DNA from: Candidatus Omnitrophota bacterium
GTDB taxonomy: Bacteria; Omnitrophota; Omnitrophia; Omnitrophales; Aquincolibacteriaceae
Assembly: GCA_030698625.1 (NCBI GenBank)
Contig: JAUYMS010000040.1
Span: 21,499-85,498, forward strand
Reading direction: 5' to 3'
DNA length: 64,000 nt
A program made the translations under genes and the position numbers. Shown here piece by piece: positions 6,493 to 61,838 of the stretch (the stretch's first letter is position 1; every line of letters begins with the position of its first letter). A model generated the notes under the pieces. The model searched no databases, was not told the origin of the DNA, and saw only the letters and a program-made list of their open reading frames with translations.

Positions 6493-6519
6493 CATGTAGT
6501 CAAGTCGAGACTTGACCCC
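6493..6519 (+). repeat. REP-like hairpin element, copy 1 (catgtaGTCAAGTcgagACTTGACccc)
   Basis: 7-bp stem GTCAAGT/ACTTGAC with a 4-nt loop. The same 27-mer recurs at 15747, 22142 and inverted at 21080. Confidence 0.6.
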
Positions 6520-6532
6520 TTCGAAAGGATGT

Positions 6533-7633
6533 ATGAAGAAAGCGCTGATCACGGGTGTTACGGGGCAGGACGGGAGCTATCTGGCGGAATTTCTGCTCAG
6601 TATGGGCTATGAGGTTCATGGCTTAAACCGGCGGTCGAGTTCTATTAATACGCAGCGCATTGCGCATCTGATAGATGAAGAGGACACCACCAATGAGCGG
6701 TTCTTTCTTCACCACGGTGACCTCGGCGATTCAGGAAAGCTCCTCGATCTTGTCCATAATGTAAAGCCCGATGAGATTTATCATCTCGGGGCACAGAGCC
6801 ACGTCAAAGTCAGCTTTGAAATTCCGGAGTACACCCTCGATGCCAATATCCTGGGCACGGTGAGGTTGCTCGAAGCGGTACGGCGCAGCGGCCTCCAGAC
6901 AAAGATTTATCAGGCATCGTCCAGTGAAATGTTTGGAAGCACCCCGCCGCCGCAGAATGAACAAAGCCCTTTTCATCCCCGTAGTCCCTACGCCGTCTCC
7001 AAAGTTGCGGCGTACTGGATCATGGTGAACTATCGCGAAAGTTACGGCATGTTTGCCTCCAACGGAATTCTTTTTAACCATGAGTCTCCGCGCAGGGGAG
7101 AAACCTTCATCACCCGAAAGATTACCCGCGCCGTAGCCCGCATCAAAAAAGGGCTTCAAAAGAAACTCTATCTGGGAAACCTGGAAGCACGCCGCGACTG
7201 GGGCTTTGCTCCCGAGTATGTCGAAGGCATGTGGCGTATCCTGCAGTTGGACAAGCCCGATGACTTTGTCATAGGCTCCGGTGAGACGCACAGCGTGCGC
7301 GAATTCGCGGAGGCTGCCTTTTCTTACGCGGACATGGATTGGCAGGAGTACGTCGAGGTGGATCCGCGGTATTTTCGCCCGGCCGAGGTGAACAACCTCG
7401 CCACCGAAATGGCAAAGGCGCGGGACATGCTGCATTGGCAGCCGCGCATCAAGTTTCAGGATCTCGTTAAAATTATGGTCGACTACGACCTTGAGTCTCT
7501 TGGACTTACTGCCAAGGGCGAGGGCAAAAAAGTCCTCCGGAAAAAGATGCTCTGGCTTTCTGAAAAACAAAAGTTTGAAATCTTCCAAAAGGATCTCGAA
7601 GAGGCGCTCTCGACACACAAGAGAAAGTCTTAA
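6533..7633 (+). CDS. gmd: GDP-mannose 4,6-dehydratase
   Basis: [22 protein letters not shown], a YAVSK catalytic Y/K, ~366 aa. RBS aaagga sits 7 nt upstream of the ATG at 6533. The track start at 6512 is probably too far upstream. Confidence 0.9.
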
Positions 7634-15739: not shown

Positions 15740-15746
15740 CGCGAAA

Positions 15747-20427: not shown

Positions 20428-20613
20428 ATATCATGCCTGCCATATCACATTTCCCGGTGGGCGCCATGAACAATTCTTGAATTCAACCATATTCCCAGGA
20501 TAGGCCCTCTTGATAAACCGTAGGGCGCGGCGAACATCGCCTTGCGACGTGTTGTCGAAATAAGCCTTACCGTCACAAGCAACGATTCTTATATTCGCAC
20601 TCATGTAAGTCGT

Positions 20614-20964: not shown

Positions 20965-21059
20965 CAGTGATTTAATCCTTATATCTCATATTATGAATAA
21001 CGCGCGTGATAGCGCAGATTCTAATCAATTATGTCATTTTAGCCATCATTTAGTTGCCG

Positions 21060-21085
21060 GGGCTAAGGGGTCGGGCTAAGGGGTC
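21060..21085. repeat. 13-bp perfect tandem duplication GGGCTAAGGGGTC x2 abutting the inverted REP
   Basis: gggctaaggggtc gggctaaggggtc, read directly. The second copy runs into the REP stem. Confidence 0.5.
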
Positions 21086-21106
21086 AAGTCTCGACTTGAC
21101 TACATG
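21080..21106 (-). repeat. REP-like hairpin element, copy 3 (inverted orientation)
   Basis: ggggtcaagtctcgacttgactacatg is the reverse complement of the 6493 copy. It lies 70 nt upstream of the RAYT start. Confidence 0.6.
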
Positions 21107-21177
21107 TTGTTTCCTGCGTATCATGATATCTTCGTAACATCATTCCACAACGTAACATAACCTCTATTCACCAGCTC

Positions 21178-29843: not shown

Positions 29844-30869
29844 ATGAGCCTTTTTCTGAACTATCTTGCAGCATTAATCGGAGTTTTCCTGGTTGCCGAA
29901 GTGGCCGTGCGCCTCTTTGGGCAGCGTCCCTGGAAACCCTCCCGGGGAAAACGGGCCTGGCGCATTGAGCCGGAGGATACGCTCTATGCCAAGGATGCGA
30001 AACTCGGCCACACTCACTTGGCAGGCAAGCACCGCGCCGTGAGCAACCGCGATCCGAGCCATTCTTTTATCTTAACTCACGGCTCAGATACGCTGCGGGT
30101 TACCTCACCGCCCGAAAGGACGCCGCAGCATGACACCCGTTCTGAAATATGGATTTTTGGTTGCTCTTACACGCATGGGTGGGGTATCAACGATTGGGAA
30201 ACCTATCCTTGGCTATTGCAGGAGCGCTATCCCGAATATCATGTGATTAACTTTGGGGTAACGGCATACGGCACCATTCACTCGCTGATCCAGTTTGAAC
30301 AGCGGATCGCCAGCGGGCGTAAGCCTGCCTGCGTTGTCCTGGCATACAGCGGACGCCATGACATGCGCAACACAATGTCGCGTCACATGAGCAAGAAGAT
30401 AACGGCCGTCAATGCCCTCGGGGCCCTTGTCGAGCCCCATGCGTATTTTTCTGCCGACGGAAAACTTTCGTATGAGGCTCGCTTGGTGGAATATAAGCCC
30501 TGGCCGTTGATGAGGTATTCGGCATTCATACATACCCTTGAGGAGATGTTTACGCGCTGGGAGATGAGTCTTCATAGGAATCACGAAGTAACTCTCGCCG
30601 CAATCCGGCGATTCCGCGAAATTGCAACGCATCTGGGATCTCCATTTGTTATCGCGGGCATTTACCGTGTCCGGGCGAATATGCGCCGAACGCTTGAATC
30701 GGACCGGTTTCTCAAAGTCAATATTTCGGTCGACCTGGGAGATCCGAAAAATAACTGCCGGCCCTATGACCCGCATCCGAGCGCGGCGGCCAATCGGGTT
30801 TATGCCGATAAGCTTTCGGCTTTTCTAGATGCGAACGTCTTTGGCAATTTACCCGCGGAGGTGTCATGA
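29844..30869 (+). CDS. SGNH/GDSL-like hydrolase or acyltransferase with N-terminal TM helix
   Basis: N-terminal hydrophobic helix (LFLNYLAALIGVFLVAEVAV), then block I IWIFGCSYTHGWG (GDS-like). Paralog of the ORF at 46206. Confidence 0.5.
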   Translation: MSLFLNYLAALIGVFLVAEVAVRLFGQRPWKPSRGKRAWRIEPEDTLYAKDAKLGHTHLAGKHRAVSNRDPSHSFILTHGSDTLRVTSPPERTPQHDTRSEIWIFGCSYTHGWGINDWETYPWLLQERYPEYHVINFGVTAYGTIHSLIQFEQRIASGRKPACVVLAYSGRHDMRNTMSRHMSKKITAVNALGALVEPHAYFSADGKLSYEARLVEYKPWPLMRYSAFIHTLEEMFTRWEMSLHRNHEVTLAAIRRFREIATHLGSPFVIAGIYRVRANMRRTLESDRFLKVNISVDLGDPKNNCRPYDPHPSAAANRVYADKLSAFLDANVFGNLPAEVS

Positions 30870-31843
30870 TGCCCAAATGCCTCGTGCTTGGTGCCGACGG
30901 ATTCATGGGAAGTCACCTTAGCGAAAAGCTCGTGGAGGCGGGTCATGAGGTCGTCTGTTTTGACCGCTTCCGAAACGGAGAACCCAGGCACATCAAAGGC
31001 CTGTCGTTCAGGACCGAGGTCGTTCACGGTGATATCCGAGCCACATCGGCACTGGACAAAGCTTTGACGGGCTGTGATATCGTTTTCCATTTTGCTTCTG
31101 CAATCAAGCCTTACTCGGATAGCGTGGCCCCCGGCAAAGTTATTGAGGAAGAATCCGATGCCGCAATTCAGCTCTTCGATCTGTGCGTACGGCATAAAAT
31201 CAAAAAGATCATCTTCCCTTCAACAGGCGGTGCGGTGTACGGGGGAATGCCCTTATCAAAATCAACGATTTCCGAAACTCATGCTGCCAGGCCCGAACTC
31301 GCCTACGCTATTCACAAGCGCGGGCTCGAAAAGGTGCTAGCCCAATACGCCTCGGAGAAAAAGCTCAATTCTTGTGTATTGCGAATCTCGAACTGCTATG
31401 GCCCCCGCGCTCCTTTACGCGGCACTCAGGGGGTTATCAGTATTTTTATGCGGCACCTTGCGGACGGCGAACCTCCTTTGATCTACGGTGATGGCCGGTC
31501 CGTTCGAGATTATGTGTACGTGACCGACGTCATCTCGGCCATAATCCTGAGTGCGATGAATCCAACGCGCCACGCGATCTACAATATCGGAGCTGCGGAA
31601 GGTTACAGTGTCATAGAAATATTCGAAAAAATAAGAGAGATTGCGGAGCGCGATATCCGCCCCGTATTTCGTGAAGCAAGACAGAATGAGATACCCCGAA
31701 TCGTCTTGAACACCGACAGGTTTCGCCGAGAGTTCCTCTGGCGACCGCGGGTCGACTTTGAGACCGGCCTACGCCAGGTGTGGCAATGGATCGTTAATGA
31801 AACTCAGACCTCATCACTAAAGCAAATCGCGGAGAAAGCATAA
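30866..31843 (+). CDS. NAD-dependent epimerase/dehydratase (extended SDR)
   Basis: GADGFMGSHL Rossmann motif, YAIHK (YxxxK), 325 aa. Confidence 0.8.
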   Translation: MMPKCLVLGADGFMGSHLSEKLVEAGHEVVCFDRFRNGEPRHIKGLSFRTEVVHGDIRATSALDKALTGCDIVFHFASAIKPYSDSVAPGKVIEEESDAAIQLFDLCVRHKIKKIIFPSTGGAVYGGMPLSKSTISETHAARPELAYAIHKRGLEKVLAQYASEKKLNSCVLRISNCYGPRAPLRGTQGVISIFMRHLADGEPPLIYGDGRSVRDYVYVTDVISAIILSAMNPTRHAIYNIGAAEGYSVIEIFEKIREIAERDIRPVFREARQNEIPRIVLNTDRFRREFLWRPRVDFETGLRQVWQWIVNETQTSSLKQIAEKA

Positions 31844-31845: not shown

Positions 31846-33543
31846 ATGATAGAAGTAACCACCAGAGAGTTGTCAAAGCAGCCCTCGACTGAAAAGCCCA
31901 ATGCCGTGATCTGGTACCTGGCAGTCCGGCCGTCTATAATCGACAGTTTGCGAGGGCTCTATGAGCACTTCAATAACCAGTACAAGTACCCGGTCATCAT
32001 CTTCACTTTCGGGCAGCCCTACTCAAAGGCCTTCATTAGCAAAATTCATCGAACCATTGACCCCGCGATTCGCTTTGTCAAAGTAAAGCCGCGCATTCCG
32101 GCGAATGTGCCTGAAAGCGAGCTCTTCTATAACCGCAAAGACATTCGCTATGTGCGCAAGAATTTCCCCGAAACCCGTATCGGATATCTCCATATGTGCC
32201 ACTTTATGGCAGGCGGTTTTCTCGACACAAAAGAGTTAGATGGCTACGACTGGGGCATGCGCCTCGATGACGACTCCTTCTTTTTGGAAGACATCTCCTT
32301 TGATTTCTTCCGCGTCATGCGCGATGGGCGATATCTCTATGGCACGGGGTATGAAAATGACCGCGAGCTTGCGCCGAAGCGAAGCGTCAATGATTGCACG
32401 AGCGGACTCTGGGAATTTACGGATGCCTATATGAAGAAAAACAGTATTGAGTCTGACTGGATTCAGCGTCACAGGCGCTCAGACGGAAGCTTTCACTATG
32501 TAGTCGGTGCAGGAAACATGACGCTGTGGAATCTTAACCTGTTCCGCAGCCCAGAGTGGCGTAGTTGGTGGAAGACGCTGCTCGAATCCGGCGGAATCTA
32601 TAAGTATCGTTGGGGCGATCAAGAAATCCACCGCCTCTTTATGCAAATGCAGTTCAAAGAGTCCGAGTGGAAATCATTCGCCCCCGAGCTCCTTGATTGC
32701 CGCTACAAGCATGAGTCGGTTCCGGAAAAACGCAAGTACTGGCACGGCGGGTTGGGGATGTGGCACACAAAACCTCATCGCTCTGCCGCACTCGCAGAGC
32801 ATCTGCGCGGCTACATGCGCAACCTTGCCCGGGCGTTATCCCCGAGAAAGTTCCTCGCTAGCCTTCGCCCGAAGCAACAGATGAACCTCACCGAAATGGG
32901 CAGACGCTTTCATGCGGAAAAGGCAGACCCGACAAGGCAGTATTTTGGCAAGTGTCTTACCGAGATTTACGAGCCCTATTTGACGGCATTTTGCGGGAAA
33001 CCCATTAAGTTGCTTGAGATTGGCGTGGCACGTGGGAAATCGCTGAGGATGTGGGCGAAATATTTCCCGCAGGCAAAGATCTTCGGGCTCGACATTAACC
33101 CTATAACTAGGAAATACGAGCGCGGAAGAATTCGGATTATTATCGGGTCCCAAAACGATCCGAACGTACTAGATGGAGTGAGCCGGGAAGCGGGCACACT
33201 TGACATCATCATCGACGACGGCAGTCACGTCAACACCCACATCCTTCAGTCCTTTGAAACCCTGTTCCCAAAACTGAATTCCGGCGGCGTTTATATCATC
33301 GAGGCTCTCCACTGTTCGTATCAAGATCTCGAAACAGCCGGGGGCATCGGGGTGCGTGAGGGATCGCGTCAAGGCTTGGGGTGGAGCGGCATGCATCTCA
33401 ATCCCGAGTCGGAATCTTTCACTAATCACCGCGAAGACATGGATCGTTTCTTTCTTGAGCGCATCAAACAACTGGATCACAAAGAAGGCAGTATTCAAAG
33501 CATCCACTTCTGGTCACGGACCTGTATCATCACAAAGGTATAA
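31846..33543 (+). CDS. Fusion: GT15 (Kre2/Mnt1-type alpha-1,2-mannosyltransferase) domain + CmcI/Methyltransf_24-like SAM methyltransferase
   Basis: The N-terminus aligns by eye to yeast Mnt1: YKYPVIIF..., YLHMCHFMAGGF..DGYDWGMRLDDDSFF (cf. YRHMCRFQSGFF..EYDWYWRVEPD) and NLNLFRSPEWRSW...GGIYKYRWGDQEIH (cf. NLNLWRSPAYREY..GGFFYERWGDAPVH). The C-terminus has LLEIGVARGKS...IIDDGSH...GGVYIIE. Confidence 0.7.
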   Translation: MIEVTTRELSKQPSTEKPNAVIWYLAVRPSIIDSLRGLYEHFNNQYKYPVIIFTFGQPYSKAFISKIHRTIDPAIRFVKVKPRIPANVPESELFYNRKDIRYVRKNFPETRIGYLHMCHFMAGGFLDTKELDGYDWGMRLDDDSFFLEDISFDFFRVMRDGRYLYGTGYENDRELAPKRSVNDCTSGLWEFTDAYMKKNSIESDWIQRHRRSDGSFHYVVGAGNMTLWNLNLFRSPEWRSWWKTLLESGGIYKYRWGDQEIHRLFMQMQFKESEWKSFAPELLDCRYKHESVPEKRKYWHGGLGMWHTKPHRSAALAEHLRGYMRNLARALSPRKFLASLRPKQQMNLTEMGRRFHAEKADPTRQYFGKCLTEIYEPYLTAFCGKPIKLLEIGVARGKSLRMWAKYFPQAKIFGLDINPITRKYERGRIRIIIGSQNDPNVLDGVSREAGTLDIIIDDGSHVNTHILQSFETLFPKLNSGGVYIIEALHCSYQDLETAGGIGVREGSRQGLGWSGMHLNPESESFTNHREDMDRFFLERIKQLDHKEGSIQSIHFWSRTCIITKV

Positions 33544-33546: not shown

Positions 33547-34284
33547 ATGGCAAACTCCCTACTCACAATTATCGGGTTAGGCGGTGTTGAACGATGGGCG
33601 AGAAGCAGGCTGCACAACCATCGTATCCATAAGTACTTTGCCGCAAAAAGACCCGGGGACAATAACTCCCAGTTTGCGATGCAGGAGCTCCTTTTCCACG
33701 CTGCCGACGTGCTGGAGAAGCATCGGATTCCTTATTGGCTGGACTGCGGAACGCTCCTCGGGGCCTGGCGTCAGGGAAATAATCTTCCTCAAGACGCCGA
33801 TGTGGATATTGGAATTCTGGAAGAGGACGCTGACCGCGTTGTCGACCACCTCAAAGGCGATTTGAAACCGCCCTATGAAATTGTGGCCGAAGGCCTTTGC
33901 CCGCGTGTCTATAACCGTCTCATTAAGTTCCCTAAGAAAACCCGGCACTACCTGCCGAAAATGAAGTGGCCCATCCACGTTGATTTACGAATCTTCAAAC
34001 TCGAAGACGGTTTTGTTAAATGCAGCGATAGAATGGGTTACGACCAGAAGCGAAAATATCAATCCGGGGCGATCACCCCTGAGGGGTGGTCCATGGGAAA
34101 ACCGAAACCGGTGCCGGCAGAATGGGTCTTCCCACTTGCTAAATGCAGGGTTCGCGGCAGGGAATTTTCGGCTCCTCGAGAGACTGAGACATATCTCGAA
34201 TTCAAATACGGATGCATCGGTGAAATCGGCAAAGAATGCGTGTGGAATCCCGACACCCAAAAACTGGAGAAGATAAAGCAATGA
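33547..34284 (+). CDS. LicD-family phosphotransferase (phosphocholine/phosphonate headgroup transferase-like)
   Basis: YWLDCGTLLGAWRQG followed by DADVDIGI, the LicD/fukutin nucleotidyltransferase-fold motifs. 245 aa. Confidence 0.8.
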   Translation: MANSLLTIIGLGGVERWARSRLHNHRIHKYFAAKRPGDNNSQFAMQELLFHAADVLEKHRIPYWLDCGTLLGAWRQGNNLPQDADVDIGILEEDADRVVDHLKGDLKPPYEIVAEGLCPRVYNRLIKFPKKTRHYLPKMKWPIHVDLRIFKLEDGFVKCSDRMGYDQKRKYQSGAITPEGWSMGKPKPVPAEWVFPLAKCRVRGREFSAPRETETYLEFKYGCIGEIGKECVWNPDTQKLEKIKQ

Positions 34285-35900
34285 AGAAACTGACTTTTAA
34301 TATTTGGATATCGGGAGAGGGCTATGCCAAGATATTTCTCGGGCCCCTGCTCCAAAGCATTGACGAGGTTTATCGCGGCACTGTGGGCTTGACCGTATGC
34401 TACGAAAACCTGAGTGATGATTTTCGTCTGGATTACAGCCGGCGGCTCCCATCCATTTACTGGCTCCCCGCCGGTGTCGCAGAGATGAAGCGTGACCATC
34501 TTCATGAGGGCTCCAAGCAACACTTGTGCAATTACACCTGGCTCAAAATGCTGGAGAAGGCCGATGACGGCTGGCATGCATTTATAGACGCAGACATGAT
34601 CCTGCTTCGCGATATACGCCACTTCTTTGAGGCGGACTTTGACGTAGCCTATACCTACTTTGACAGGACACACTTTTCTCCCGGAGGAGATATATCGCGG
34701 TCGGCTTCGGGCAAATATGATCGTATCAACCTGGGGGTCGTGCTCGTGAAGAACGTGGTCCACGGTTTGAGGTTTTTCCGAAAATGGGCAGAAGTGAGCG
34801 ACAAGTACTTGAGTGAACCTAAAAAATACGCCGACCTCACATGGGAGTGGGGTTCACCCGACCAAGCGGCATTCGTGAGTCTGCTAGCTACCGAGGATCA
34901 CACAAGACCCTATGAGCGTAACGGAATCAAATTACAGCCTTATTTAGCGCAGGATCTTAATGAGCCTGCGGGTCTGCCTATCACCGAAAGACAGCATGCG
35001 ATTCACCTCAAAAACTGGTGGCCGGTACTGCCGGACGGGAAGTGGGAGAACATCCGCTCTCCGAAGGCAAAGCAAGGTCGCAACGCTCGTGTTTGCGGCG
35101 AACAGTACCGCGCATGGCGGGGCTTCTATCACCGCTGGAATCGCCGCGGGGAATCCGGCTTGACTCACATCACGAGAAAGGTCGGAACGTTGATTCGTGA
35201 AGGTCGATTGCCCAATAGTTGGACGGCTTCGGTCCAGTCGTTCTTTAAGAAGCGCGGACTTGATAAACGCCTCACAAAATGGAAGAACGTGCTTGCTGCG
35301 GGTTTTTTCACAGCCAGAGCCTATGTCTGTTATAGGTTAAAGCGTCCTTTACCCGGACGGGAAGATTTGCCTTACCTCTTGCGAGTCTTGAAACTGGACG
35401 GCGAGGGAGTGGAGGTCGGAGTGCAAGGCGGCGGCTATTCCAAAAGATTGTTGCGTCACAGCGGCTTAGCGAAGCTCCATTCAGTGGATCCCTGGCAATC
35501 TTTTGAGGAGCACGAATATGTCAGCAGCGCCAACGTTTCACAGCAAGAACAGGATTGGCTCTACGCCAAGACACAAAGGAAACTGAACAGCTTCGGGGAC
35601 CGCAGCCAAATCTTGCGCATGGCGTCTACCCAGGCGGCGCCGCAATTCGCGGATGAAAGCCTGGACTTCGTATTCATCGATGCCAACCACGCCTATTCGG
35701 CGGTTAAAGAAGACATTGAGCACTGGTGGCCGAAAGTCAAAAAAGGCGGGCTCTTTGCAGGGCATGACTATCTCGATGGTGACCTCCCAACGGGCGATTA
35801 CGGGGTCAAACAAGCGGTAAATGAATTAATCAAGGAGCACGGGCAGGAACTCTTCGTCATCCCGCAAGAGTTCCCAACCTGGTATGTGATCAAGAAATGA
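34281..35900 (+). CDS. Fusion: GT-A (GT8-related) glycosyltransferase domain + class I SAM methyltransferase (Methyltransf_24-like)
   Basis: N-terminus: AFIDADMILL (DxD)...INLGVVLVK. C-terminus: VEVGVQGGGYS...FVFIDANHAYSAV...GGLFAGHDY. ATG at 34281 overlaps the upstream stop. Paralog of the ORF at 49258. Confidence 0.6.
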   Translation: MKKLTFNIWISGEGYAKIFLGPLLQSIDEVYRGTVGLTVCYENLSDDFRLDYSRRLPSIYWLPAGVAEMKRDHLHEGSKQHLCNYTWLKMLEKADDGWHAFIDADMILLRDIRHFFEADFDVAYTYFDRTHFSPGGDISRSASGKYDRINLGVVLVKNVVHGLRFFRKWAEVSDKYLSEPKKYADLTWEWGSPDQAAFVSLLATEDHTRPYERNGIKLQPYLAQDLNEPAGLPITERQHAIHLKNWWPVLPDGKWENIRSPKAKQGRNARVCGEQYRAWRGFYHRWNRRGESGLTHITRKVGTLIREGRLPNSWTASVQSFFKKRGLDKRLTKWKNVLAAGFFTARAYVCYRLKRPLPGREDLPYLLRVLKLDGEGVEVGVQGGGYSKRLLRHSGLAKLHSVDPWQSFEEHEYVSSANVSQQEQDWLYAKTQRKLNSFGDRSQILRMASTQAAPQFADESLDFVFIDANHAYSAVKEDIEHWWPKVKKGGLFAGHDYLDGDLPTGDYGVKQAVNELIKEHGQELFVIPQEFPTWYVIKK

Positions 35901-36535
35901 AACTCTTCCCCTGGCAAAAGAATAACATCGATCAGATCATCGATTTTCATCACCGCAATGACTCCGGATTCGCGCGGCATCATTTGGCACTTTACTCGGT
36001 AGTTTTGGGGCTCGAAACCAAAAGCGCATTTGAGTTTGGCTGCGGCCGTTCCACGCTTACGATACTTCGCGCCCTGCGTCAGACAGGGGGCAGGCTCATT
36101 TCCTGCGACCTGCGCGATCTTCCCGATACCGGTGTCGACGCAAACGATCTCTATCGCTTCAGGGATATATGGGATTACCTGCAGGGGGATTCGCTCGGGA
36201 TTGCTTCTGAGGTTGGGAATGAGATATTCGATTTCGTCTTACATGACGGCTCACACGAAGCGGATATCGTCCAGTCGGACCTCAGTAAGATCGTCCCCCG
36301 AATGATGAGAAACAGCATCCTCTTGCTTCATGACACCGACCACCCGACCCAGGACTATGGCCTGCAAGCTGCCGCAGAAAGAGCCCTGGCACCGTATCGC
36401 CACAGCCTGGTAACCCTTCCCTACGGTTATGGCCTCACCATCGTCAGGATCGATGAGGACTTCGGGCATGGGACAGTTCGGGTTGAGTGGAGAAAAACAA
36501 AATCCGGGAAGCCGAAGGTCAAGAAGAGAAAATGA
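35897..36535 (+). CDS. Class I SAM methyltransferase (CmcI/Methyltransf_24-like)
   Basis: FEFGCGRST...FVLHDGSHE...LLLHDTD. Confidence 0.6.
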   Translation: MKLFPWQKNNIDQIIDFHHRNDSGFARHHLALYSVVLGLETKSAFEFGCGRSTLTILRALRQTGGRLISCDLRDLPDTGVDANDLYRFRDIWDYLQGDSLGIASEVGNEIFDFVLHDGSHEADIVQSDLSKIVPRMMRNSILLLHDTDHPTQDYGLQAAAERALAPYRHSLVTLPYGYGLTIVRIDEDFGHGTVRVEWRKTKSGKPKVKKRK

Positions 36536-38181
36536 AATTATCAATCGTCATCACGACATTCAATAGGGCTGAGTGCCTCAAGGCAAATCTCCTTGAATTT
36601 GCTAAGCAGACGGACACTGACTTCGAAGTGATCGTGGCTATGGATGGGTGCACCGACAAAACCGAGGACATGCTCTCAGAACTCCTGCCGGCTCTGCCTT
36701 ATGAACTCCGTTGGGTCGATACGGGCGAAACCGGCAAATACTGCTTGGGCAAAGCAAGAAACATGGGCATCCTGGAATCAACCGGCGAAGCGGTCGTCAT
36801 CCTCGACGATGACACCTTTCCCACTCCCGAATTTGTCCAAGAGCACAAGAGGACCGCTCGCCCCAGGACGATTACATGCGGCTATCGGAATTCTCATGAT
36901 CCGGCCGATGAGCTTCACGCCAAGATGAAAAGTCAAATGCAAAAACTCAAGCAGGGGAAACTCAACCGCATCAAAGGGGTAGAGAACAATGCCTGCATGT
37001 ATCGTGAGGATTGGATCGGATGCGGGCTCTTTTCTGAGAGAATCGAGGGCTACGGCGGCGTCGGGCAGGAGTTCATGCCCCGCCTAAGGTTTCAGGGATT
37101 CGGTTACCAATTTAACCCAAAGGCCATGGCCTATCATCACCGTGAATACGAAGGCGTCAACGGCCTGACGCGTGACAAAAAAAGCGAACAGCACACCGCA
37201 AATCTGGCGCAGCTCAGAAAATTCTTCCCCAAAGATCAGGGCGATGCCGTGCCGCAGAGCTTTGATGATCTCGCTGCCGTTCCTACTGCAAAGCTCTCCG
37301 GAATCCAGAAAACAATTGAAGAGATGAGATATTCCTACGCATTGCACCATGCCCGGTCCAGGAGGGCGTTGATCCTAGCTCCGTACGGACAGGAGTACTT
37401 CGATGACGGGCTAAAACACCTCACGGCATCCCGGGCGGTACGTGCGCTCGTGGCCCAAGGGAAACTGGACGTGCTGATATTCACCTCGAAACGCACGAAG
37501 ATTTCCCGTATTCCCGAGGGCTATCAAGTGCTTGCCATCTCAGACGTGCCGCGCTGGCCGCCTGCTCCCGCGCTGCAGAATCGCTTCATCAAATGGGCTA
37601 TCCCTTTACTTTTTCCTAATATAGGCTCAAGCATTTATCTCGACACCGATTTGCGGATCACCCACAGCAGCGAAAGATTGTCACAAATCTTTGCGACAAT
37701 CGAGGATAAGAAATTCATCCTATCTTTACACCCGCGTTCGGGGTGGCAGACGGAATATGAAAAAATAGTCCGCAAGGGGGCACATGATAATCGCGAGCTG
37801 CTCGAACAACAGCGGCGCTTATTTCTCGCCCTCGGTATCCCGGAGCAGATCGCTTTTTACCAATGCAATTTTATCGGCCGCCGCCACGATGCTCTGGAGA
37901 ACAACCCCTTTTATCTAAATGTCTTACAGCAATTAAACTGCTACAGCGGACGGGACCAGTTAGCGGTCGCTTACGCGCTCTTCGTCACAGATATTAAGCC
38001 GTACAGTCTCCCGGTTGGGGAAGATCTATTCGCTTATGCACCGAAACTGCAAAACAATATGCCATGTTTCGTTGATGAAAAGGCGTGGCCTCGATTCAAA
38101 CAGCTTGCGCTCAAGGACGAGAGGCGGAAGAAATCTCCCGTTCAAAGGATACTCTCATGGTCACGAAATCCGGATTGGTAA
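36532..38181 (+). CDS. GT2 glycosyltransferase with ~300-aa C-terminal domain of unknown function
   Basis: MKLSIVITTFNRAE...VAMDGCTDKT...ILDDD. ATG at 36532 overlaps the upstream stop (ATGA). The C-terminal half has no motif I recognise. Confidence 0.65.
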   Translation: MKLSIVITTFNRAECLKANLLEFAKQTDTDFEVIVAMDGCTDKTEDMLSELLPALPYELRWVDTGETGKYCLGKARNMGILESTGEAVVILDDDTFPTPEFVQEHKRTARPRTITCGYRNSHDPADELHAKMKSQMQKLKQGKLNRIKGVENNACMYREDWIGCGLFSERIEGYGGVGQEFMPRLRFQGFGYQFNPKAMAYHHREYEGVNGLTRDKKSEQHTANLAQLRKFFPKDQGDAVPQSFDDLAAVPTAKLSGIQKTIEEMRYSYALHHARSRRALILAPYGQEYFDDGLKHLTASRAVRALVAQGKLDVLIFTSKRTKISRIPEGYQVLAISDVPRWPPAPALQNRFIKWAIPLLFPNIGSSIYLDTDLRITHSSERLSQIFATIEDKKFILSLHPRSGWQTEYEKIVRKGAHDNRELLEQQRRLFLALGIPEQIAFYQCNFIGRRHDALENNPFYLNVLQQLNCYSGRDQLAVAYALFVTDIKPYSLPVGEDLFAYAPKLQNNMPCFVDEKAWPRFKQLALKDERRKKSPVQRILSWSRNPDW

Positions 38182-39701: not shown

Positions 39702-40538
39702 ATGGATAAACTTAGCGTTGTAATCACATGCTACAAACCGGGCGAAAAACTGGCGGAGGCTTTCGCCAGCTTGCGGGCACAAACGGATAATGACTTTGAG
39801 ATTATCATTGTCAATGACGCCTCGCCGAGTGAGGATCTTAATCAAGCTTGCCGGCAACTTGAGACGGATGAGGCCGTTGGCGTGATTTGGCGGAGAAAAA
39901 ACGGGGGCGCGGCCGCGGCCCGAAATGACGGCTGCCGAGCCATTGCCGGCAACATCTATATACCCCTGGACGCAGATGACGTATTACCGCCGGATGCCGT
40001 TGCTACCATTCGGCACACTTTTGACGAATGGCCCGCCGCTGACTTCGTGTTCGGCGATTATCTTTACCGTCCTGATGGAGGTGCCGAAAAAGTTATGAAT
40101 GCCGGGGCTATGTGCGGTAGTGACGGCTGGCTAAGACCGCAGTCGCTAGCCAAGAGATTTGGAATCTACGGGGGAAGCCCCTTCCGAAAAATCGCGTGGG
40201 AACGAGTCAGCGGCTATGATGAAAGCGTTCCGTCAGGACATGAAGACGTCGATTTCTGGCTGCGCATGGTCAACTCCGGAGCGCGGGGCCGGTACGTGAA
40301 CCATTTGCTCTATATCTGGCAGCGCTCAGAACGGGGGATGGGAAGTCTCGTCCCCAAGGCGAAAAAGATGCGCATCAAGTGGGTAAAGAACGCCCCGTTT
40401 TATGACCGCTACGCCCATCCGATCGGATGGAGAAAAAAGGTGATACGCGAGGCCCTCAAGGAAAGTGATTACGGCTTGGCGGTAAGACTTTTTTTCGGGC
40501 TCATTCTATCGAAATTGAAATTAAGGGAGAAGGTATGA
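39702..40538 (+). CDS. GT2 glycosyltransferase
   Basis: LSVVITCYKPGE...IIVNDAS...PLDADD (DxD). Confidence 0.7.
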   Translation: MDKLSVVITCYKPGEKLAEAFASLRAQTDNDFEIIIVNDASPSEDLNQACRQLETDEAVGVIWRRKNGGAAAARNDGCRAIAGNIYIPLDADDVLPPDAVATIRHTFDEWPAADFVFGDYLYRPDGGAEKVMNAGAMCGSDGWLRPQSLAKRFGIYGGSPFRKIAWERVSGYDESVPSGHEDVDFWLRMVNSGARGRYVNHLLYIWQRSERGMGSLVPKAKKMRIKWVKNAPFYDRYAHPIGWRKKVIREALKESDYGLAVRLFFGLILSKLKLREKV

Positions 40539-42498: not shown

Positions 42499-42509
42499 TT
42501 TGGAACCCT

Positions 42510-59165: not shown

Positions 59166-59675
59166 ATGAGTTCCGCATACGCCGCCTCGCCGCTACAAAA
59201 AATTGCGCCTGACGTACGCTTCGGTCGTGACGTGATCGTTCGTGATTTCGTCAATCTCTACGGCTGCGAGATCGGTGACGAATCGCAGATCGGCCCCTTT
59301 GTCGAAGTGCAGAAAAACGCACGCATAGGTAAGCGCTGCAAAATCTCCAGTCATTCCTTTATCTGTGAAGGAGTGACCATTGAGGATGGTGTCTTTTTAG
59401 GCCATGGCGTCATGTTCACCAATGGGAAATACCCTAGCGCCACCAATCCGGACGGCAGTTTGCAAACCGAGAAAGACTGGATCTGTGAGAAAACCCTTGT
59501 GAAAAAGGGTGCCTCGATCGGATCTGGGTCCTCGATTCTCTGCGGGATTACGATTGGCGAGAACGCGCTTATCGGTGCCGGCAGTGTGGTCACCCGCGAC
59601 ATTCCCGACGGCGCTCGTGCTTGCGGCAATCCCGCGCGTCTCATGCAAGGCGCCTCCGACATCGAAGGCCGCTGA
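59166..59675 (+). CDS. Left-handed beta-helix (hexapeptide-repeat) acyltransferase, probably a sugar N-acetyltransferase
   Basis: Repeating [LIV]G-x4 hexapeptides: IGKRCKI, IEDGVFLG, IGSGSSI, IGENALIGAGSVV. 169 aa. Confidence 0.75.
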   Translation: MSSAYAASPLQKIAPDVRFGRDVIVRDFVNLYGCEIGDESQIGPFVEVQKNARIGKRCKISSHSFICEGVTIEDGVFLGHGVMFTNGKYPSATNPDGSLQTEKDWICEKTLVKKGASIGSGSSILCGITIGENALIGAGSVVTRDIPDGARACGNPARLMQGASDIEGR

Positions 59676-60478
59676 TGCTTCGGGATCTTTTTTCCTATCT
59701 CGGGAATCTTGTCAAAGAGAGGAGAATCATTTTCGAGCTGGCGAAGCGTGATTTCCGCGTACGCTACCTCGGCTCGTATCTTGGCATTCTGTGGGCATTT
59801 CTGCAGCCGGCCGTCTTTGTGTTCCTCCTCTGGTTCATTTTTCACCTCGGCTTTAGGAGCGCGCCGGTCAAGAACATGCCGTACATCCTCTGGCTGCTTC
59901 CCGCACTCATCCCGTGGTTCTTTTTCTCCGAAAGCTTGAGCAGCGCCACCAATGCCCTCATCGACAACAGCCACATCGTCAAGAAGGTAGTCTTTCAGGT
60001 CAATATCCTGCCGGTGATCAAGATCGTCTCTTCGCTGTACGTACACCTAGTCTTCGTCGGAATCCTCTTTGTGGTCTATGCCGCATCAGGCCGCTTTTCC
60101 TTGCCCGTCTTTATCCATGTTGCCTACTATCTGAGCGCCACAATTCTATTAGTTCTTGGGTTGTCATTTTTCACCGCTTCACTCGTGGTTTTTATTCGTG
60201 ACGTCACTCAGGTGATCGCGATTCTCCTGAATTTCGGCTTTTGGATGACCCCCATATTCTGGCATGTCGACCTTCTGCCCGAGAAGTACCAGAGCCTCAT
60301 GCGGCTAAACCCCGTCTATTACATCACGGAAGGATACCGCAATAGTTTTATGCAGCATGCGCCGACCGCGGCAGAACCTCTGTGGACACTTTACTTCTGG
60401 GCTGTGGTCCTCATAACATTCGTGACCGGTGCGATGTTTTTCAAGAGGCTTAAACCGCATTTCGCCGACGTGCTTTAG
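59675..60478 (+). CDS. wzm: ABC-2 type polysaccharide exporter permease
   Basis: RDFRVRYLGSYLGILWAFLQP is a characteristic ABC-2 N-terminal motif. Six TM helices. ATG at 59675 overlaps the upstream stop. Confidence 0.75.
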   Translation: MLRDLFSYLGNLVKERRIIFELAKRDFRVRYLGSYLGILWAFLQPAVFVFLLWFIFHLGFRSAPVKNMPYILWLLPALIPWFFFSESLSSATNALIDNSHIVKKVVFQVNILPVIKIVSSLYVHLVFVGILFVVYAASGRFSLPVFIHVAYYLSATILLVLGLSFFTASLVVFIRDVTQVIAILLNFGFWMTPIFWHVDLLPEKYQSLMRLNPVYYITEGYRNSFMQHAPTAAEPLWTLYFWAVVLITFVTGAMFFKRLKPHFADVL

Positions 60479-60488
60479 GAACGTGACG

Positions 60489-61838
60489 ATGACTGACAAC
60501 ACAGCCATTCGGGTGGAGGGGCTTTCAAAGATATACCGCCTCTATGACAAGCCCATAGACCGTCTGAAAGAGGCCCTTCACATTTTTCGCCGAAAATATC
60601 ACCGTGACTTCTTTGCCCTACAGGACGTCTCGTTTGAAATAAGAAAAGGGGAGAGCATCGGTATCATTGGGAGAAACGGCGCGGGAAAATCAACGCTTCT
60701 AAAAATTCTCACGGGCGTTCTGACTGCCAGCTCCGGCCGGGTCGATGTCACCGGAAAAGTTTCGGCCCTCCTGGAATTGGGGCTGGGCTTCAACCCCGAA
60801 ATGACTGGCATCGAAAACGTTCGCTTTGGCGGCGCGATCATGGGTTACTCAAAGGAGGCGTTTGAAGCGAAAATCGATGAGATCCTGTCTTTCGCCGATA
60901 TCGGGGAGTTTGTCCATCAACCCGTCAAGACGTATTCAAGCGGAATGTATGTACGACTCGCCTTTGCGTTGCAGATGTCCGTTGATCCCGACATCCTGAT
61001 CGTGGACGAAGCTCTGGCCGTGGGGGATGTCTTTTTCCAGGCGAAGTGCATGACCCGTCTGCGCCACATTATCGACAAGGGAGTAACGGTGCTGTTCGTA
61101 AGTCATGATACCAGTGTCGTCAAAAGCCTTTGCAGCAAAGCCCTGCTGCTCGACCGCGGCCGCTTACTTACCTTCGACCGCCCCGGTGCTGTTGCTGAAA
61201 CTTATTTCCGCATGAAAACACAGGCCGAGCAGCCCATACTCAGCCAGTTAGCTGGGGAGCCACGAAAGTTCGTGCCGACCGGCGAAGCCACGGGTGACGA
61301 ACTCTGGGATTCTTTTACGGCTGCCACGCAACCGTTTGAAGAGCGGGCCCGGTATGAGCGGATCAGCAACGGAAAAGCCTCATTCCGAAAAGTCGCTATT
61401 CTTGATGCTGCAGGGCAGGAGATCGAAGAGGCAAATTTCGGGCAGGAGATCACGCTTCGCATGGCCGTTGAAGCGCATGAAGACGTGCCTCAACTCGGAT
61501 ACAGTTACTGCATCGCAGACAGAAACATGCACAGAATCATTTATTCCGATAGCTATATTGAAAACGGCTCCCTTGAGAATGTCCGGGCGGGCGAACGTTT
61601 TATCGTCGATTGGAACTTCAAACTGCCACTACAGGCGGGGTCTTACAACGTCCTCGCGGCTCTGTCCATTCCTGTCAATCTCGAATTGCAGAAAGTGGTA
61701 TTTTGCGACCGTATCCCTATCGCCTGTCAATTTTTGCTCAACCGCGATCCTGCCTTTCACCTATATGCACCGGTAAAATTCGAACATCGCTTACGCATTC
61801 AGCGCATGACGGCGCAAGCGGCAACGGCTGGGAATTAA
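60489..61838 (+). CDS. wzt: ABC polysaccharide exporter ATPase with C-terminal glycan-binding extension
   Basis: Walker A GRNGAGKST, signature SSGMYVRLAFA, Walker B ILIVDEA. About 200 extra C-terminal residues, Wzt_C-like. Confidence 0.8.
   Translation: MTDNTAIRVEGLSKIYRLYDKPIDRLKEALHIFRRKYHRDFFALQDVSFEIRKGESIGIIGRNGAGKSTLLKILTGVLTASSGRVDVTGKVSALLELGLGFNPEMTGIENVRFGGAIMGYSKEAFEAKIDEILSFADIGEFVHQPVKTYSSGMYVRLAFALQMSVDPDILIVDEALAVGDVFFQAKCMTRLRHIIDKGVTVLFVSHDTSVVKSLCSKALLLDRGRLLTFDRPGAVAETYFRMKTQAEQPILSQLAGEPRKFVPTGEATGDELWDSFTAATQPFEERARYERISNGKASFRKVAILDAAGQEIEEANFGQEITLRMAVEAHEDVPQLGYSYCIADRNMHRIIYSDSYIENGSLENVRAGERFIVDWNFKLPLQAGSYNVLAALSIPVNLELQKVVFCDRIPIACQFLLNRDPAFHLYAPVKFEHRLRIQRMTAQAATAGN

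Follow-up and report, generated by a model that had tools for sequence, protein, structure and literature searches.

A GT15-family glycosyltransferase domain fused to a MycE/SpnK-like methyltransferase in a surface-glycan locus of a Candidatus Omnitrophota bacterium

Glycosyltransferase family GT15 is viewed as an antifungal target and as a family of the fungal Golgi, and Mnn6 is a mannosylphosphate transferase. Mnn6/Ktr6 is assigned to fungal GT15, and in a survey of 153 genomes the corresponding Pfam family, PF01793, was confined to fungi (PMC5225481). The fungal members Kre2/Mnt1, Ktr4, and CmsA (1s4n, 5a07, and 7boo) share a GT-A fold, and the roles of the catalytic residues of Mnt1, among them Arg130 as a nucleotide/phosphate contact, are taken here from PMC11077754. 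Literature searches for bacterial GT15 brought up no account of prokaryotic members. Among bacterial enzymes, WsaE from Geobacillus stearothermophilus consists of a 2-O-methyltransferase and two rhamnosyltransferase domains (PMC2943079). WsaE, ORF6 of the Klebsiella pneumoniae O7 locus, and WbdD of Escherichia coli (O8/O9a) may serve as analogues of the protein described here, as each joins glycosyltransferase and methyltransferase modules in one polypeptide encoded in a Wzm/Wzt locus for ABC-transporter-dependent glycan assembly, and the same enzyme system methylates the sugar that it installs (PMC2943079, PMC11231755). MycE and SpnK (3ssm/3ssn and 8ia9, the latter also labelled demethylmacrocin O-methyltransferase) are Mg-dependent deoxysugar O-methyltransferases of macrolide pathways. 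In MycE, Asp275 and Asp304 are Mg ligands and His278 is catalytic (PMC9275233).

Omnitrophota constitute, to our knowledge, a phylum without cultured representatives, and their biology is thought to hinge on cell-cell contact. The window, i.e., the whole stretch of 64,000 nucleotides analysed here, contains at 31846..33543 (+ strand) an ORF of 565 amino acyl residues with an ATG start and a TAA stop, preceded by a GGAG Shine-Dalgarno-like site (31832..31835, + strand) 10 nt 5' of the ATG. Its product is identical to NCBI MDP3920786.1, which is labelled just "class I SAM-dependent methyltransferase" [Candidatus Omnitrophota bacterium]; since this annotation covers the methyltransferase only, half of the function of the protein has been missed. 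Gaps of 2-3 bp separate the gene from both of its operon partners, upstream a gene for a GalE-like SDR of the NDP-hexose epimerase/dehydratase family (30866..31843, + strand; 4zrm, E=1.4e-45), the TAA stop of which ends at 31843, and downstream a gene for a LicD-family protein (33547..34284, + strand). Scans for promoter- or terminator-like sites gave no clear enrichment over shuffled sequences. Two antisense ORFs within the gene (32836-33153 and 33169-33507, - strand) are taken to be mere side effects of the coding frame.

The N-terminal domain (aa ~13-300; 31882..32745, + strand) is confirmed, by profile searches and a predicted structure, as a genuine member of GT15. PF01793 (Glyco_transf_15) matches aa 13-268 over profile positions 48-306 of 325 with E=6.2e-27 and 95.3 bits, the gathering cut-off being 25 bits, and therefore the assignment made in the preliminary description withstands the search by which it might have failed. 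With phmmer, the domain finds yeast Mnt1 (1s4n) at E=1.8e-16, CmsA (7boo) at E=4e-9, and Ktr4 (5a07) at E=5e-8, and a profile built from 41 prokaryotic relatives finds Mnt1 (1s4n) at E=6.9e-31. The three blocks noticed earlier as resembling Mnt1 are genuine, i.e., YKYPVIIF (aa 46-53), GYLHMCHF...YDWGMRLDDD (aa 113-143), and NLNLFRSP...GGIYKYRWGDQEIH (aa ~229-262), and HMMER pairs all three with the corresponding blocks of Mnt1. An AlphaFold2 model of aa 1-336 (pLDDT 86.4) was compared by Foldseek with known structures, and each of the top 11 matches is a chain from Mnt1, CmsA, or Ktr4 (2e-17 to 2e-15, TM 0.64-0.67). The Mnt1 structures 1s4n/1s4o are among the best of these (2e-17 to 6e-17, TM 0.65), together with CmsA 7boo (1e-16) and Ktr4 5a07 (6e-16), while other GT-A families (GT8, GT24, and GT6) lie far behind at about 7e-7.

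The alignments show that the catalytic core known from Mnt1 is kept in the Omnitrophota protein, although the pairing of one histidine is less certain. Arg28 (31927..31929, + strand) pairs with Mnt1 Arg130 and is invariant in a 7-sequence alignment (A1), and Tyr114 in GYLHMC (32185..32187, + strand) pairs with Mnt1 Tyr220. The DxD-type metal motif Asp141-Asp142-Asp143 (32266..32274, + strand) pairs with Glu247-Pro248-Asp249, and the column of Asp141/Glu247 contains Asp or Glu in all but 2 of 157 tallied sequences. Arg255-Trp-Gly-Asp258 (RWGD; 32608..32619, + strand) pairs with Arg358...Asp361 of Mnt1, and its Arg, Trp, and Asp are almost invariant across all groups of the family. His289 in CRYKH (32710..32712, + strand) pairs with Mnt1 His388, the second Mn ligand within the motif D-x-x-Y-x-H, in one MAFFT L-INS-i alignment of this variable region; the HMMER alignments end before His289 and the 7-sequence MAFFT alignment places the stretch as an insertion. 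The Tyr of YxHMC, the acidic metal-binding motif, and RWGD are thus shared with fungal GT15 enzymes, and, if the L-INS-i pairing is right, so is the histidine of a C-terminal YxH; in keeping YxH, which is typical of the other main clade, the protein would differ from its stand-alone subclade relatives.

The pockets for the donor base and for the acceptor are different. At the position of the guanine-reading loop L-N160-D161-E of Mnt1, the Omnitrophota protein has FTFGQP (aa 54-59; 32005..32022, + strand), and within IFTFGQPY no Asn, Asp, or Glu occurs at or beside the positions of N160 and D161, which are occupied by F and G as in 16/17 members of the subclade; acidic and amide side chains are missing from this loop in the subclade as well. 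All alignments place V, A, and T where Mnt1 has its acceptor-mannose contacts H323, W325, and E329, respectively, and the Glu329 column, which is Glu in 45/45 anchored sequences, contains Thr, Asn, or Tyr in the clade of the Omnitrophota protein. E279 is paired with Ser in the large MAFFT alignment but with Asp, a conservative replacement, when HMMER aligns the two proteins pairwise. With guanine-reading and acceptor-binding residues replaced, homology does not reveal the donor or the acceptor, and the designation alpha-1,2-mannosyltransferase given in the preliminary description is not established. Such natural variants, combining a kept catalytic core with altered donor-base and acceptor pockets, could be useful for dissecting specificity within this fold.

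Also unlike fungal GT15 enzymes, to which identity is only 22%, the protein has neither a type-II anchor and stem, the GT15 domain beginning at residue ~13, nor the disulfides, as the positions of the Mnt1 disulfide cysteines Cys254 and Cys322 are occupied by Glu and Val, respectively. No TM-like hydropathy segment exists anywhere in the protein (maximum KD19 0.98). The lack of a membrane anchor and of disulfide cysteines indicates a cytoplasmic location rather than the Golgi lumen. Between the two domains lies a basic amphipathic helix/linker (aa ~312-345; 32779..32880, + strand; helix 312-331 in the AlphaFold2 model) with a hydrophobic moment of 0.62. Its counterpart is the basic amphipathic helix with which stand-alone GT15 proteins of prokaryotes end, and in most of these the moment is 0.55-0.77 and the net charge +4 to +8. 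The helix is probably a membrane-surface anchor.

Such stand-alone proteins are encoded in Patescibacteria (JAHJSY010000002, L001), Saccharibacteria (L002), Nanoarchaeota (MDP2947110.1), and metagenomic loci (P0002/P0004). They are 40-45% identical to the Omnitrophota domain, belong to the same subclade (94/100), and have likewise lost the guanine-reading loop. They consist of about 300 amino acyl residues forming a single domain that ends with the amphipathic helix, whereas the MycE-like domain is found in the Omnitrophota protein alone. Their genes are also situated in polysaccharide operons adjoining genes for NDP-sugar epimerases/dehydratases; among their neighbours are a DegT aminotransferase gene and, in L001, a 4,6-dehydratase-type gene, and neither is next to the Omnitrophota gene.

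The C-terminal domain (aa ~349-565; 32890..33540, + strand) is a class I SAM-dependent O-methyltransferase domain of the MycE/SpnK type. The two domains were aligned and modelled separately, as a joint full-length alignment misplaced the methyltransferase sequences (8-17% identity). Methyltransf_24 (PF13578) matches with 33.6 bits (cut-off 26.3), MycE 3ssm with E=9e-25, and the next structure of the MycE/SpnK group with 1.5e-24, which substantiates the previously noted fusion to a SAM methyltransferase. The term "CmcI-like" used for it was imprecise, however, since PF04989 (CmcI/rhamnosyl O-methyltransferase) stays below its cut-off (16 bits vs 23.2, E=0.01) and MycE and SpnK are the closest characterized, and by sequence and fold the closest solved, relatives. 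The AlphaFold2 model has a pLDDT of 80 overall and above 90 over the core, and Foldseek aligns it with MycE at 1.4e-16 and TM 0.71, the target-normalised TM being 0.42-0.46. The alignment is limited to the methyltransferase core of MycE (residues ~180-310; chain residues 200-330), and the N-terminal auxiliary domain of MycE is without counterpart. SAM-binding motif I (LEIGVA, aa 390-395; 33013..33030, + strand), with E-I-G invariant in 32 aligned sequences, and the invariant DDGSH (aa 457-461; 33214..33228, + strand), corresponding to MycE Asp275 and His278, are shared with MycE, and Asp458 and His461 are kept in 32/32 aligned sequences. Glu303 of MycE is also retained, but the following Asp304 is replaced by Ala (Glu486-Ala487; 33301..33306, + strand), at a position where 30/32 aligned sequences have E-D. 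Judged from the alignment, a methyltransferase with Ala487 may be weakened, may have a different metal geometry, or may be inactive. The substrate is presumably a glycan and not a macrolide sugar as in the case of MycE and SpnK. According to phmmer, the domain and the window's other MT24 domains do not stem from a recent duplication.

In the preliminary description, the suggested O-methylated chain, based on mannose/6-deoxyhexose, had been compared loosely with mycobacterial methylmannose polysaccharides. The comparison holds as an analogy of concept, in that ManT, MeT1, and MeT3 alternate glycosyl transfer and O-methylation of a mannose-type glycan, and does not extend to specific kinship, as MeT1 (6g80/6g7d) matches the methyltransferase domain at 2e-6 to 5e-6, a level that unrelated class I methyltransferases also reach. 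We know of no GT15 enzyme in that mycobacterial pathway.

GT15 domains are fused to methyltransferases in other proteins as well, namely P0073 (MT24+GT15), P0072 (GT15+MT11/25), P0126 (GT15+MT25/31), and P0075 (MT22+GT15). The fusions thus arise repeatedly, the methyltransferase family and the order of the domains varying among them, and such recurrent independent fusions constitute a signal of the Rosetta-stone type for coupled glycosyl transfer and O-methylation. As compact two-activity enzymes they might be of use in making methylated glycans. The C-terminal 195 amino acyl residues of a further protein, P0091, align with the methyltransferase profile at an hhalign probability of 47.5% (E=1.9e-4), suggestive of GT15 plus a possible class I methyltransferase, and P0091 is not among the counted fusions.

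The exact architecture of the Omnitrophota protein is a singleton, known as one protein from one organism, and in P0002 a separate methyltransferase gene adjoins or overlaps the start of the GT15 gene, so one might suspect that an error in sequencing or assembly joined adjacent GT15 and methyltransferase genes. (When the methyltransferase domains of the window were compared by phmmer with ORFs of related loci, a search of low sensitivity, this neighbour in P0002 was the only match.) However, the reading frame is unbroken, and the same protein with the same neighbours, present in the NCBI MAG on a 135-kb contig, was recovered from run SRR13727534 as assembled independently by Logan; the fusion is therefore not the product of one assembler. 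Moreover, the linker is the usual C-terminal helix of the stand-alone homologues followed directly by the N-terminal helices of the methyltransferase, and one of the other GT15-methyltransferase fusions was found on four contigs. An artefactual fusion is hence exceedingly improbable. We give even less credence to a eukaryotic source, either through a gene recently acquired horizontally from a fungus or another eukaryote or through eukaryotic contamination of the bin, although GT15 is best known from fungi (PMC5225481) and the blocks of the protein match yeast Mnt1. Apart from the low identity to Mnt1 and the missing signal anchor and disulfide cysteines, the GC content is uniform (about 0.52) and the gene lies within a tight bacterial operon. 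In a bootstrap tree from Poisson distances, the protein belongs to a clade with 100/100 support that has no membrane-anchored member and in which the four named members are all prokaryotic, its nearest neighbour lies within this clade in 100/100 replicates, and it forms a subclade with the sequences from Patescibacteria, Saccharibacteria, and Nanoarchaeota (94/100). Taxonomic anchors were obtained from a scan of GTDB genomes with a single peptide pattern and represent a lower bound, while the cluster records of the closest relatives carry almost no taxonomy. Based on clade support, topology, operon, and GC, recent fungal transfer was rejected.

The protein is therefore not "eukaryote-type" as first described, and of the two origins considered then, transfer from or deep homology with the eukaryotic family, ancient common ancestry is the remaining reading. 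The accompanying statement that GT15 is rare outside eukaryotes agrees with 1009 PF01793-type matches (E<=1e-3) among 1.84 billion cluster representatives and with the fungal restriction in the 153-genome survey. The Omnitrophota protein is part of an overlooked prokaryotic branch of GT15, and a well-supported clade of cytoplasmic type, with named members that are all prokaryotic, alters the picture of GT15 as a fungal Golgi family and raises the question of the source of the eukaryotic enzymes. A protein from Methanoperedens matches Mnt1 at E=3e-43. One might speculate that the prokaryotic GT15 enzymes constitute an old family in its own right, present in lineages of ultra-small or episymbiotic cells (Patescibacteria, DPANN, and Omnitrophota) and in some archaea, that in the clade of the Omnitrophota protein the donor changed to a non-GDP one or a modified sugar and the enzyme became an obligatory glycosylate-then-methylate unit, and that the eukaryotic Golgi Ktr/Mnt1 enzymes descended from such an ancestor. 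In this scenario, which we regard as doubtful in its entirety, obligatory coupling would lead to repeated fusion to unrelated methyltransferases, and, if true, Ktr/Mnt1 would be of prokaryotic descent and not a fungal invention.

The window encodes about 12 glycosyltransferase domains, 13 SAM methyltransferase domains, four sulfotransferases, Wzy_C, and functions for phosphonate synthesis. The previously reported gmd and GME-like genes are present, gmd (GDP-mannose 4,6-dehydratase) at 6512..7633 (+ strand; TIGR01472, 501.5 bits vs a cut-off of 415) and two tandem paralogues of GDP-mannose 3,5-epimerase at 40535-41509 and 41524-42498 (+ strand; plant GME 2c59, E=3e-95 and 4e-101, respectively). 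Genes for Wzm, an ABC-2 permease (59621-60478), and for the Wzt ATPase with a C-terminal carbohydrate-binding Wzt_C domain of 77.7 bits (60429-61838) are located at 59621..61838 (+ strand). The implied product is a surface glycan with methyl, sulfate, phosphonate, L-galactose/6-deoxyhexose, and LicD-type decorations, which points to an unusually decorated cell surface in Omnitrophota.

The fusion protein most likely helps to build a heavily methylated cell-surface glycan, and we think it reasonably probable that it does so as a soluble or peripheral cytoplasmic two-activity enzyme of lipid-linked glycan assembly. Its GT15 domain would transfer a hexose in a metal-dependent manner from a nucleotide sugar onto the growing glycan, employing Asp141-143, His289, Arg255 and Asp258 of RWGD, and Tyr114, presumably, by homology, with retention of the anomeric configuration. 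A GDP-activated mannose-derived donor is plausible in view of gmd and the two GME genes; however, the guanine-reading residues are absent. The MycE/SpnK-type domain would then methylate a hydroxyl of the glycan, in the simplest case on the residue just added or its neighbour, while the basic amphipathic helix between the domains would keep the protein on the surface of the membrane, the site of the lipid-linked acceptor. WsaE, ORF6, and WbdD differ from such an enzyme in employing GT2/GT4-type domains instead of GT15 and in their domain order.

As a special case of this explanation, the protein might be a chain terminator that attaches the final non-reducing sugar and a methyl group to it, and this cap would be read by the carbohydrate-binding domain of Wzt before export, as with WbdD of E. 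coli O8/O9a, ORF6 of K. pneumoniae O7, and WsaE of the Geobacillus S-layer glycan. Known Wzt-CBM systems export only methyl-, methylphosphate-, or Kdo-capped chains, and terminators may reside in multi-module glycosyltransferase proteins (PMC11231755, PMC2943079), so the presence of Wzm and of Wzt with Wzt_C in the window fits this possibility. Yet these genes are found 26 kb downstream of the fusion gene, past an opposite-strand block (51523-56687), the AlphaFold2 models contain only helices of 20 and 25 residues and no long coiled-coil ruler like those of terminators, and since the window encodes at least three further glycosyltransferase-methyltransferase fusions and a total of 13 methyltransferase domains, methylation looks pervasive and not terminal only. 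We therefore consider a terminator rather unlikely. Somewhat less likely still is an active glycosyltransferase joined to a degenerate methyltransferase that has lost catalysis and is retained for binding SAM/SAH or a sugar, for scaffolding, or for regulation. The replacement of an Mg ligand by Ala487 would agree with it, as would a 22-residue insert of low model confidence (aa 498-519) and the deletion of the 7-residue active-site loop containing Tyr208 of MycE, but this loop is absent from the whole subfamily, and motif I, DDGSH with its metal-binding Asp and catalytic His, Glu486, and the confidently modelled core are intact. Finally, the membership of Mnn6 in GT15 (PMC5225481), the adjoining gene of the LicD family, which is linked with phosphodiester-type decoration, and the phosphonates made by the locus would suit a Mnn6/Ktr6-like sugar-phosphate transferase generating a phosphodiester branch by transfer of hexose-1-phosphate. 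This is very improbable, given that in all of our analyses the protein is no closer to Mnn6-type than to Mnt1-type enzymes.

The gene at 31846-33543 on the plus strand of the window, exactly where the preliminary description had placed it, encodes a protein of 565 residues and is preceded by a GGAG ribosome-binding site 10 nt before its start. Its N-terminal domain is a member of glycosyltransferase family GT15 by HMM score, similarity to characterised members, fold and core catalytic residues. The match to Glyco_transf_15 (PF01793) in Pfam, the absence of which would count against this assignment, is strong (E=6.2e-27, 95.3 bits vs a gathering score of 25, aa 13-268), and the three sequence blocks initially recognised by eye are those that HMMER aligns. 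Among all PDB sequences, aa 30-267 retrieve yeast Kre2/Mnt1 (1s4n, E=1.8e-16) and two Ktr4/CmsA structures (4e-9 and 5e-8). The AlphaFold2 prediction for aa 1-336, with 41 relatives as input, has high confidence (pLDDT 86.4, pTM 0.83) and, when compared with solved structures, matches best three GT15 proteins, i.e., Mnt1 (2e-17, TM 0.65), to which the preliminary description had likened it, CmsA (1e-16) and Ktr4 (6e-16), the next GT-A families (GT8, GT24, GT6) reaching about 7e-7 at best. The best viral fold match to the protein is the Megaviridae protein A0A5J6VLB3 (2.6e-12).

Roles of individual residues are available from a modelling study of Candida Mnt1, which starts from structure 1S4P of yeast Mnt1 and lists yeast counterparts for some residues (PMC11077754). 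With chain numbering checked against the HMMER alignments, residues kept with respect to Mnt1 are Arg130 (Arg28), Tyr220 (Tyr114, in GYLHMC), the metal motif Glu247-Pro-Asp (Asp141-Asp-Asp), and Arg358 and Asp361 (Arg255 and Asp258, in RWGD). Mnt1 His388 may correspond to His289 in CRYKH, an assignment less certain than the others, and CRYKH fits the D-x-x-Y-x-H motif of the Mnt1, Methanoperedens, haloarchaeal, and Bacteroidota homologues. Of the 184 family members aligned, nearly all, most of the membrane-anchored ones among them, have D-[DT]-D as metal motif; the exception in the family is not the DDD found here but the E-P-D of S. cerevisiae Mnt1, which has often been quoted as evidence against a DxD motif in GT15. 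Judged from these residues, the chemistry of nucleotide-sugar cleavage looks intact. Three features tied to the characterised function of GT15 enzymes, recognition of guanine, contacts with the mannose acceptor, and a Golgi topology, are lacking, however. The guanine-reading Asn160 and Asp161 of Mnt1 are not kept, the loop IFTFGQPY having no acidic or amide residue in their place, and the acceptor contacts His323, Trp325, and Glu329 are replaced by V, A, and T. With these residues replaced, homology offers no basis for the label GDP-mannose α-1,2-mannosyltransferase, and the initial naming as an α-1,2-mannosyltransferase is not established. The cysteines of the Mnt1 disulfide, Cys254 and Cys322, are replaced by E and V, and Glu279 is matched by Asp171, a conservative change, when the two sequences are aligned pairwise with HMMER, but by Ser when 184 sequences are aligned.

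A hydropathy scan reveals no membrane span, the most hydrophobic 19-residue window reaching 0.98. At the C-terminus of most stand-alone prokaryotic homologues lies a helix that is amphipathic and basic (hydrophobic moment 0.55-0.77, net charge +4 to +8), and the same helix is kept as the inter-domain linker (aa ~312-345, moment 0.62), where it probably serves as a membrane-surface anchor.

The C-terminal methyltransferase half, the METHYLTRANSFERASE domain, belongs to Methyltransf_24 in Pfam (33.6 bits vs a cut-off of 26.3, aa 390-485). A methyltransferase is indeed fused to GT15, as first proposed, but its description as CmcI-like does not hold, as RMNT_CmcI scores 16 bits, under its cut-off of 23.2, which leaves the domain outside the CmcI family by the Pfam threshold, and MycE is closer. 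Among all PDB sequences, aa 369-493 find MycE (3ssm, 9e-25) and 8ia9 (1.5e-24), an entry that the fold library names SpnK and the sequence library demethylmacrocin O-methyltransferase; the two enzymes depend on Mg and O-methylate 6-deoxyhexoses. Modelling of aa 337-565 (pLDDT 80) yields a class I Rossmann methyltransferase that includes a single disordered insert (aa 498-519); the top fold matches of this model are MycE (1.4e-16, TM 0.71) and 8ia9, generic methyltransferases, including mycobacterial MeT1, coming next at about 1e-6. An alignment of 32 sequences shows no variation in the E-I-G of motif I (LEIGVA, aa 390-395) or in DDGSH (aa 457-461). In MycE, His278 is presumably the catalytic base. 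The DDGSH motif corresponds to the Mg ligand Asp275 and to this conserved active-site His278 (PMC9275233). Where 30 of the 32 aligned sequences have Glu-Asp, the present protein has Glu486-Ala487, and the Asp at the position of Ala487 is Asp304 in MycE, the second Mg ligand (PMC9275233). In the alignment, the Tyr208 loop of MycE is absent from the whole subfamily. Because of Ala487 in place of Asp304 and the missing Tyr208 loop, the domain is classified from its sequence as MycE-like but outside the MycE group, with an atypical metal site. As a Methyltransf_24 member it probably works in a similar way to MycE and SpnK, but it fails in three MycE-specific features.

When 1.84 billion cluster representatives are searched exhaustively with aa 1-336 (phmmer), 1009 clusters match at E<=1e-3, of which 259 at E<=1e-10; the GT15-like family is rare. 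The best relatives are proteins of about 300 residues with the domain starting at residue 1; lower-ranked ones have an N-terminal hydrophobic anchor and stem like eukaryotic Golgi enzymes, or are multidomain proteins of 1000-1500 residues. A genome scan with a single peptide pattern and one genome per GTDB species, the counts of which are lower bounds, detects GT15-like genes in at least 11 genomes, i.e., from bacteria (Patescibacteria, two Saccharibacteria, a Verrucomicrobiales MAG, Emticicia soli, and two Roseivirga) and archaea (two Candidatus Methanoperedens, one unclassified uncultured archaeon, and Natronomonas aquatica); a profile search adds the Nanoarchaeota protein MDP2947110.1. A survey of 153 genomes reports PF01793 only in fungi (PMC5225481), and our literature searches found no description of a prokaryotic GT15. 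As far as these searches show, the prokaryotic GT15 clade is new, and the combination of GT15 with a MycE-like domain is unprecedented.

A neighbour-joining tree of 184 domains, divided at its midpoint, consists of two groups. Group A contains 68 sequences, 67 of them without any N-terminal extension and one, the relative P0073, in which the extension is a methyltransferase domain; it has zero membrane anchors and includes the present protein and the CPR/DPANN anchor sequences. Group B comprises all 45 membrane-anchored sequences, yeast Mnt1 and a Guillardia protein, together with Methanoperedens, haloarchaeal, Verrucomicrobiales, and Bacteroidota proteins. With Poisson distances and 69 taxa, bootstrap support is 100/100 for the group A split and 94/100 for a subclade uniting the protein with Patescibacteria, Saccharibacteria, and Nanoarchaeota, and its nearest neighbour lies inside group A in 100/100 replicates. 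The metagenomic relatives P0002, P0004, and the locus L001 lie in compact bacterial polysaccharide operons beside genes for a DegT aminotransferase and for NDP-sugar dehydratases/epimerases, with a methyltransferase adjacent or nearby. Placement in the unanchored group A and these bacterial operons therefore lead us to reject recent fungal transfer, a form of the horizontal transfer from the eukaryotic family considered at first, as well as eukaryotic contamination, leaving such an origin virtually no probability. Reported exchange between Patescibacteriota, Omnitrophota, and DPANN, and the hypervariable polysaccharide cassettes of Omnitrophota (bioRxiv 10.64898/2026.05.20.726742), fit the membership of this subclade. 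A 325-residue GT15 protein from Candidatus Methanoperedens (JBAQMZ010000054, L004 7956-8933) matches yeast Mnt1 with E=3.3e-43, and therefore prokaryotic sequences exist that are much nearer to the fungal enzymes than the present protein is. It retains YRHMC, NFEI, RWGD, and YQH, with a Wzx-like flippase upstream and a B12-radical SAM gene downstream.

In a 5.8-billion-sequence index no other protein spans both halves, and the architecture is a singleton. GT15-methyltransferase fusions occur in at least four further forms among relatives: P0073 of group A (Methyltransf_24 at the N-terminus, then GT15; four contigs with bacterial-type loci), P0072 (GT15 with Methyltransf_11/25), P0126 (GT15 with Methyltransf_25/31; on a 281-kb contig with a second GT15 gene and transposases alongside), and P0075 (FkbM-type Methyltransf_22 with GT15; 1156 aa). 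Because methyltransferase families and domain orders differ and both tree groups are represented, these sequences imply that the fusions arose independently, and their recurrence is the strongest indirect evidence that both activities act on the same glycan. At L016 6001-9149 (ENA ERZ25068762), a second, stand-alone GT15-like gene and a FUT8_N_cat-like gene come after P0126, alongside transposases, so that "eukaryotic" glycosyltransferase families again appear on a prokaryote-type contig. At L017 1800-9269 (JGI 3300062158), two adjacent P0075-like paralogues of about 1160 residues (N-terminal anchor, FkbM-type Methyltransf_22, GT15) lie among ORFan genes, with protist, giant virus, and prokaryote as candidate origins.

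The gene lies in a glycan region that extends from about 6.5 to 63 kb of the window and is largely co-directional, apart from a minus-strand gene (10059-11684) and a minus-strand block (51523-56687). Directly upstream is a GalE-like SDR epimerase gene (gap of 2 bp) and directly downstream a LicD gene (gap of 3 bp). The presence of gmd (6512-7633; TIGR01472, 501 bits vs 415) and of two tandem plant-type GDP-mannose 3,5-epimerase paralogues (40535-41509 and 41524-42498; E=3e-95 and 4e-101 to Arabidopsis GME, 2c59) bears out the preliminary description; no NCBIfam model reaches its cut-off for the latter pair (best Fcl, 118-134 bits vs 500). The region encodes about 12 glycosyltransferase domains, 13 SAM methyltransferase domains, a UDP-glucose dehydrogenase, and four sulfotransferases (19693-20427, 42453-43442, 43439-44422, and 61840-62670), which imply sulfation of the glycan besides methylation. 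Also encoded here are Wzm/Wzt, with a carbohydrate-binding domain of the Wzt_C type, as well as an MsbA-like exporter and an O-antigen-ligase/Wzy_C protein. A module at 7637-17377 suggests a phosphonate-decorated glycan, possibly C- or P-methylated; it contains a PEP mutase-nucleotidyltransferase fusion (11785-13500), a phosphonopyruvate decarboxylase-like TPP decarboxylase (13497-14606), an Fe-ADH (14603-15739), and three B12-radical SAM enzymes, one KedN5-like (7637-9622), one resembling the Sden_1168 P-methyltransferase (10059-11684, minus strand; 297 bits, below the cut-off of 575), and a third at 15839-17377. Glycosyltransferase-methyltransferase fusion is a theme of the locus, with three more cases, GT2 with Methyltransf_11 (25480-27747), Nucleotid_trans, a weak match, with Methyltransf_24 (34236-35900), and GT8 with Methyltransf_24 (49210-50763), besides two paralogous proteins combining Methyltransf_23 with an MptE-like (DUF115) domain (23600-25483 and 47339-49261). 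The other Methyltransf_24 domains of the window are no recent paralogues of the one studied here.

We consider it reasonably probable that the protein is cytoplasmic, associated with the membrane, and bifunctional. In this reading the GT15 domain would bind a nucleotide sugar by means of a divalent metal, the DDD motif and His289 and, by analogy with Mnt1, pass the sugar on to a lipid-linked glycan while retaining its configuration; the MycE-like domain would then methylate a hydroxyl of the new or an adjacent residue, using SAM, Asp458, His461, and Glu486. The most economical donor, with gmd and both GME paralogues encoded in the region, is a mannose derivative linked to GDP (Man, L-Gal or a 6-deoxyhexose), although the missing guanine-reading loop leaves room for other nucleotides. 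Of this picture, the data establish the identity of the domains, the conserved residues, the topology, the gene context and the repeated fusion, from which stereochemistry, donor, acceptor, the order of the reactions and membrane binding are inferred.

It is rather unlikely that the protein is specifically the terminator that caps the chain and is recognised by the carbohydrate-binding domain of Wzt, as known for WbdD, O7 ORF6, and WsaE (PMC11231755, PMC2943079), since Wzm/Wzt is 26 kb away, methyltransferases abound in the locus and a coiled-coil ruler is lacking. WsaE, the closest functional precedent, also joins a methyltransferase and glycosyltransferases in one chain, but these belong to families unrelated to GT15. 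Somewhat less likely still is a degenerate methyltransferase, for which the change from Asp to Ala at the metal site speaks. That the GT15 domain transfers a sugar phosphate like Mnn6 is improbable, and an artefactual fusion even more so; the protein and its neighbours are identical in the NCBI MAG of Candidatus Omnitrophota (MDP3920786.1, 135-kb contig) and in the Logan assembly of SRR13727534, which was made independently. In the NCBI record the label reads only "class I SAM-dependent methyltransferase", so that 60% of the protein, the GT15 domain, is left unannotated.

Elsewhere in the window, a 1524-residue ORF (55-4629) has no Pfam match at E<=1e-4, and an IS200-like Y1 transposase domain fused to a DnaA C-terminal helix-turn-helix (21178-22164) lies mid-locus, coinciding with the lowest GC of the window (0.479 at 20001-22000). 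Two other proteins match "eukaryote-flavoured" families, one combining GT2 with a weak C-terminal TOD1/MUCI70 match (36487-38181, E=0.027), and the other matching Mito_fiss_Elm1 (PF06258) strongly (52569-53642, minus strand; 182 bits).
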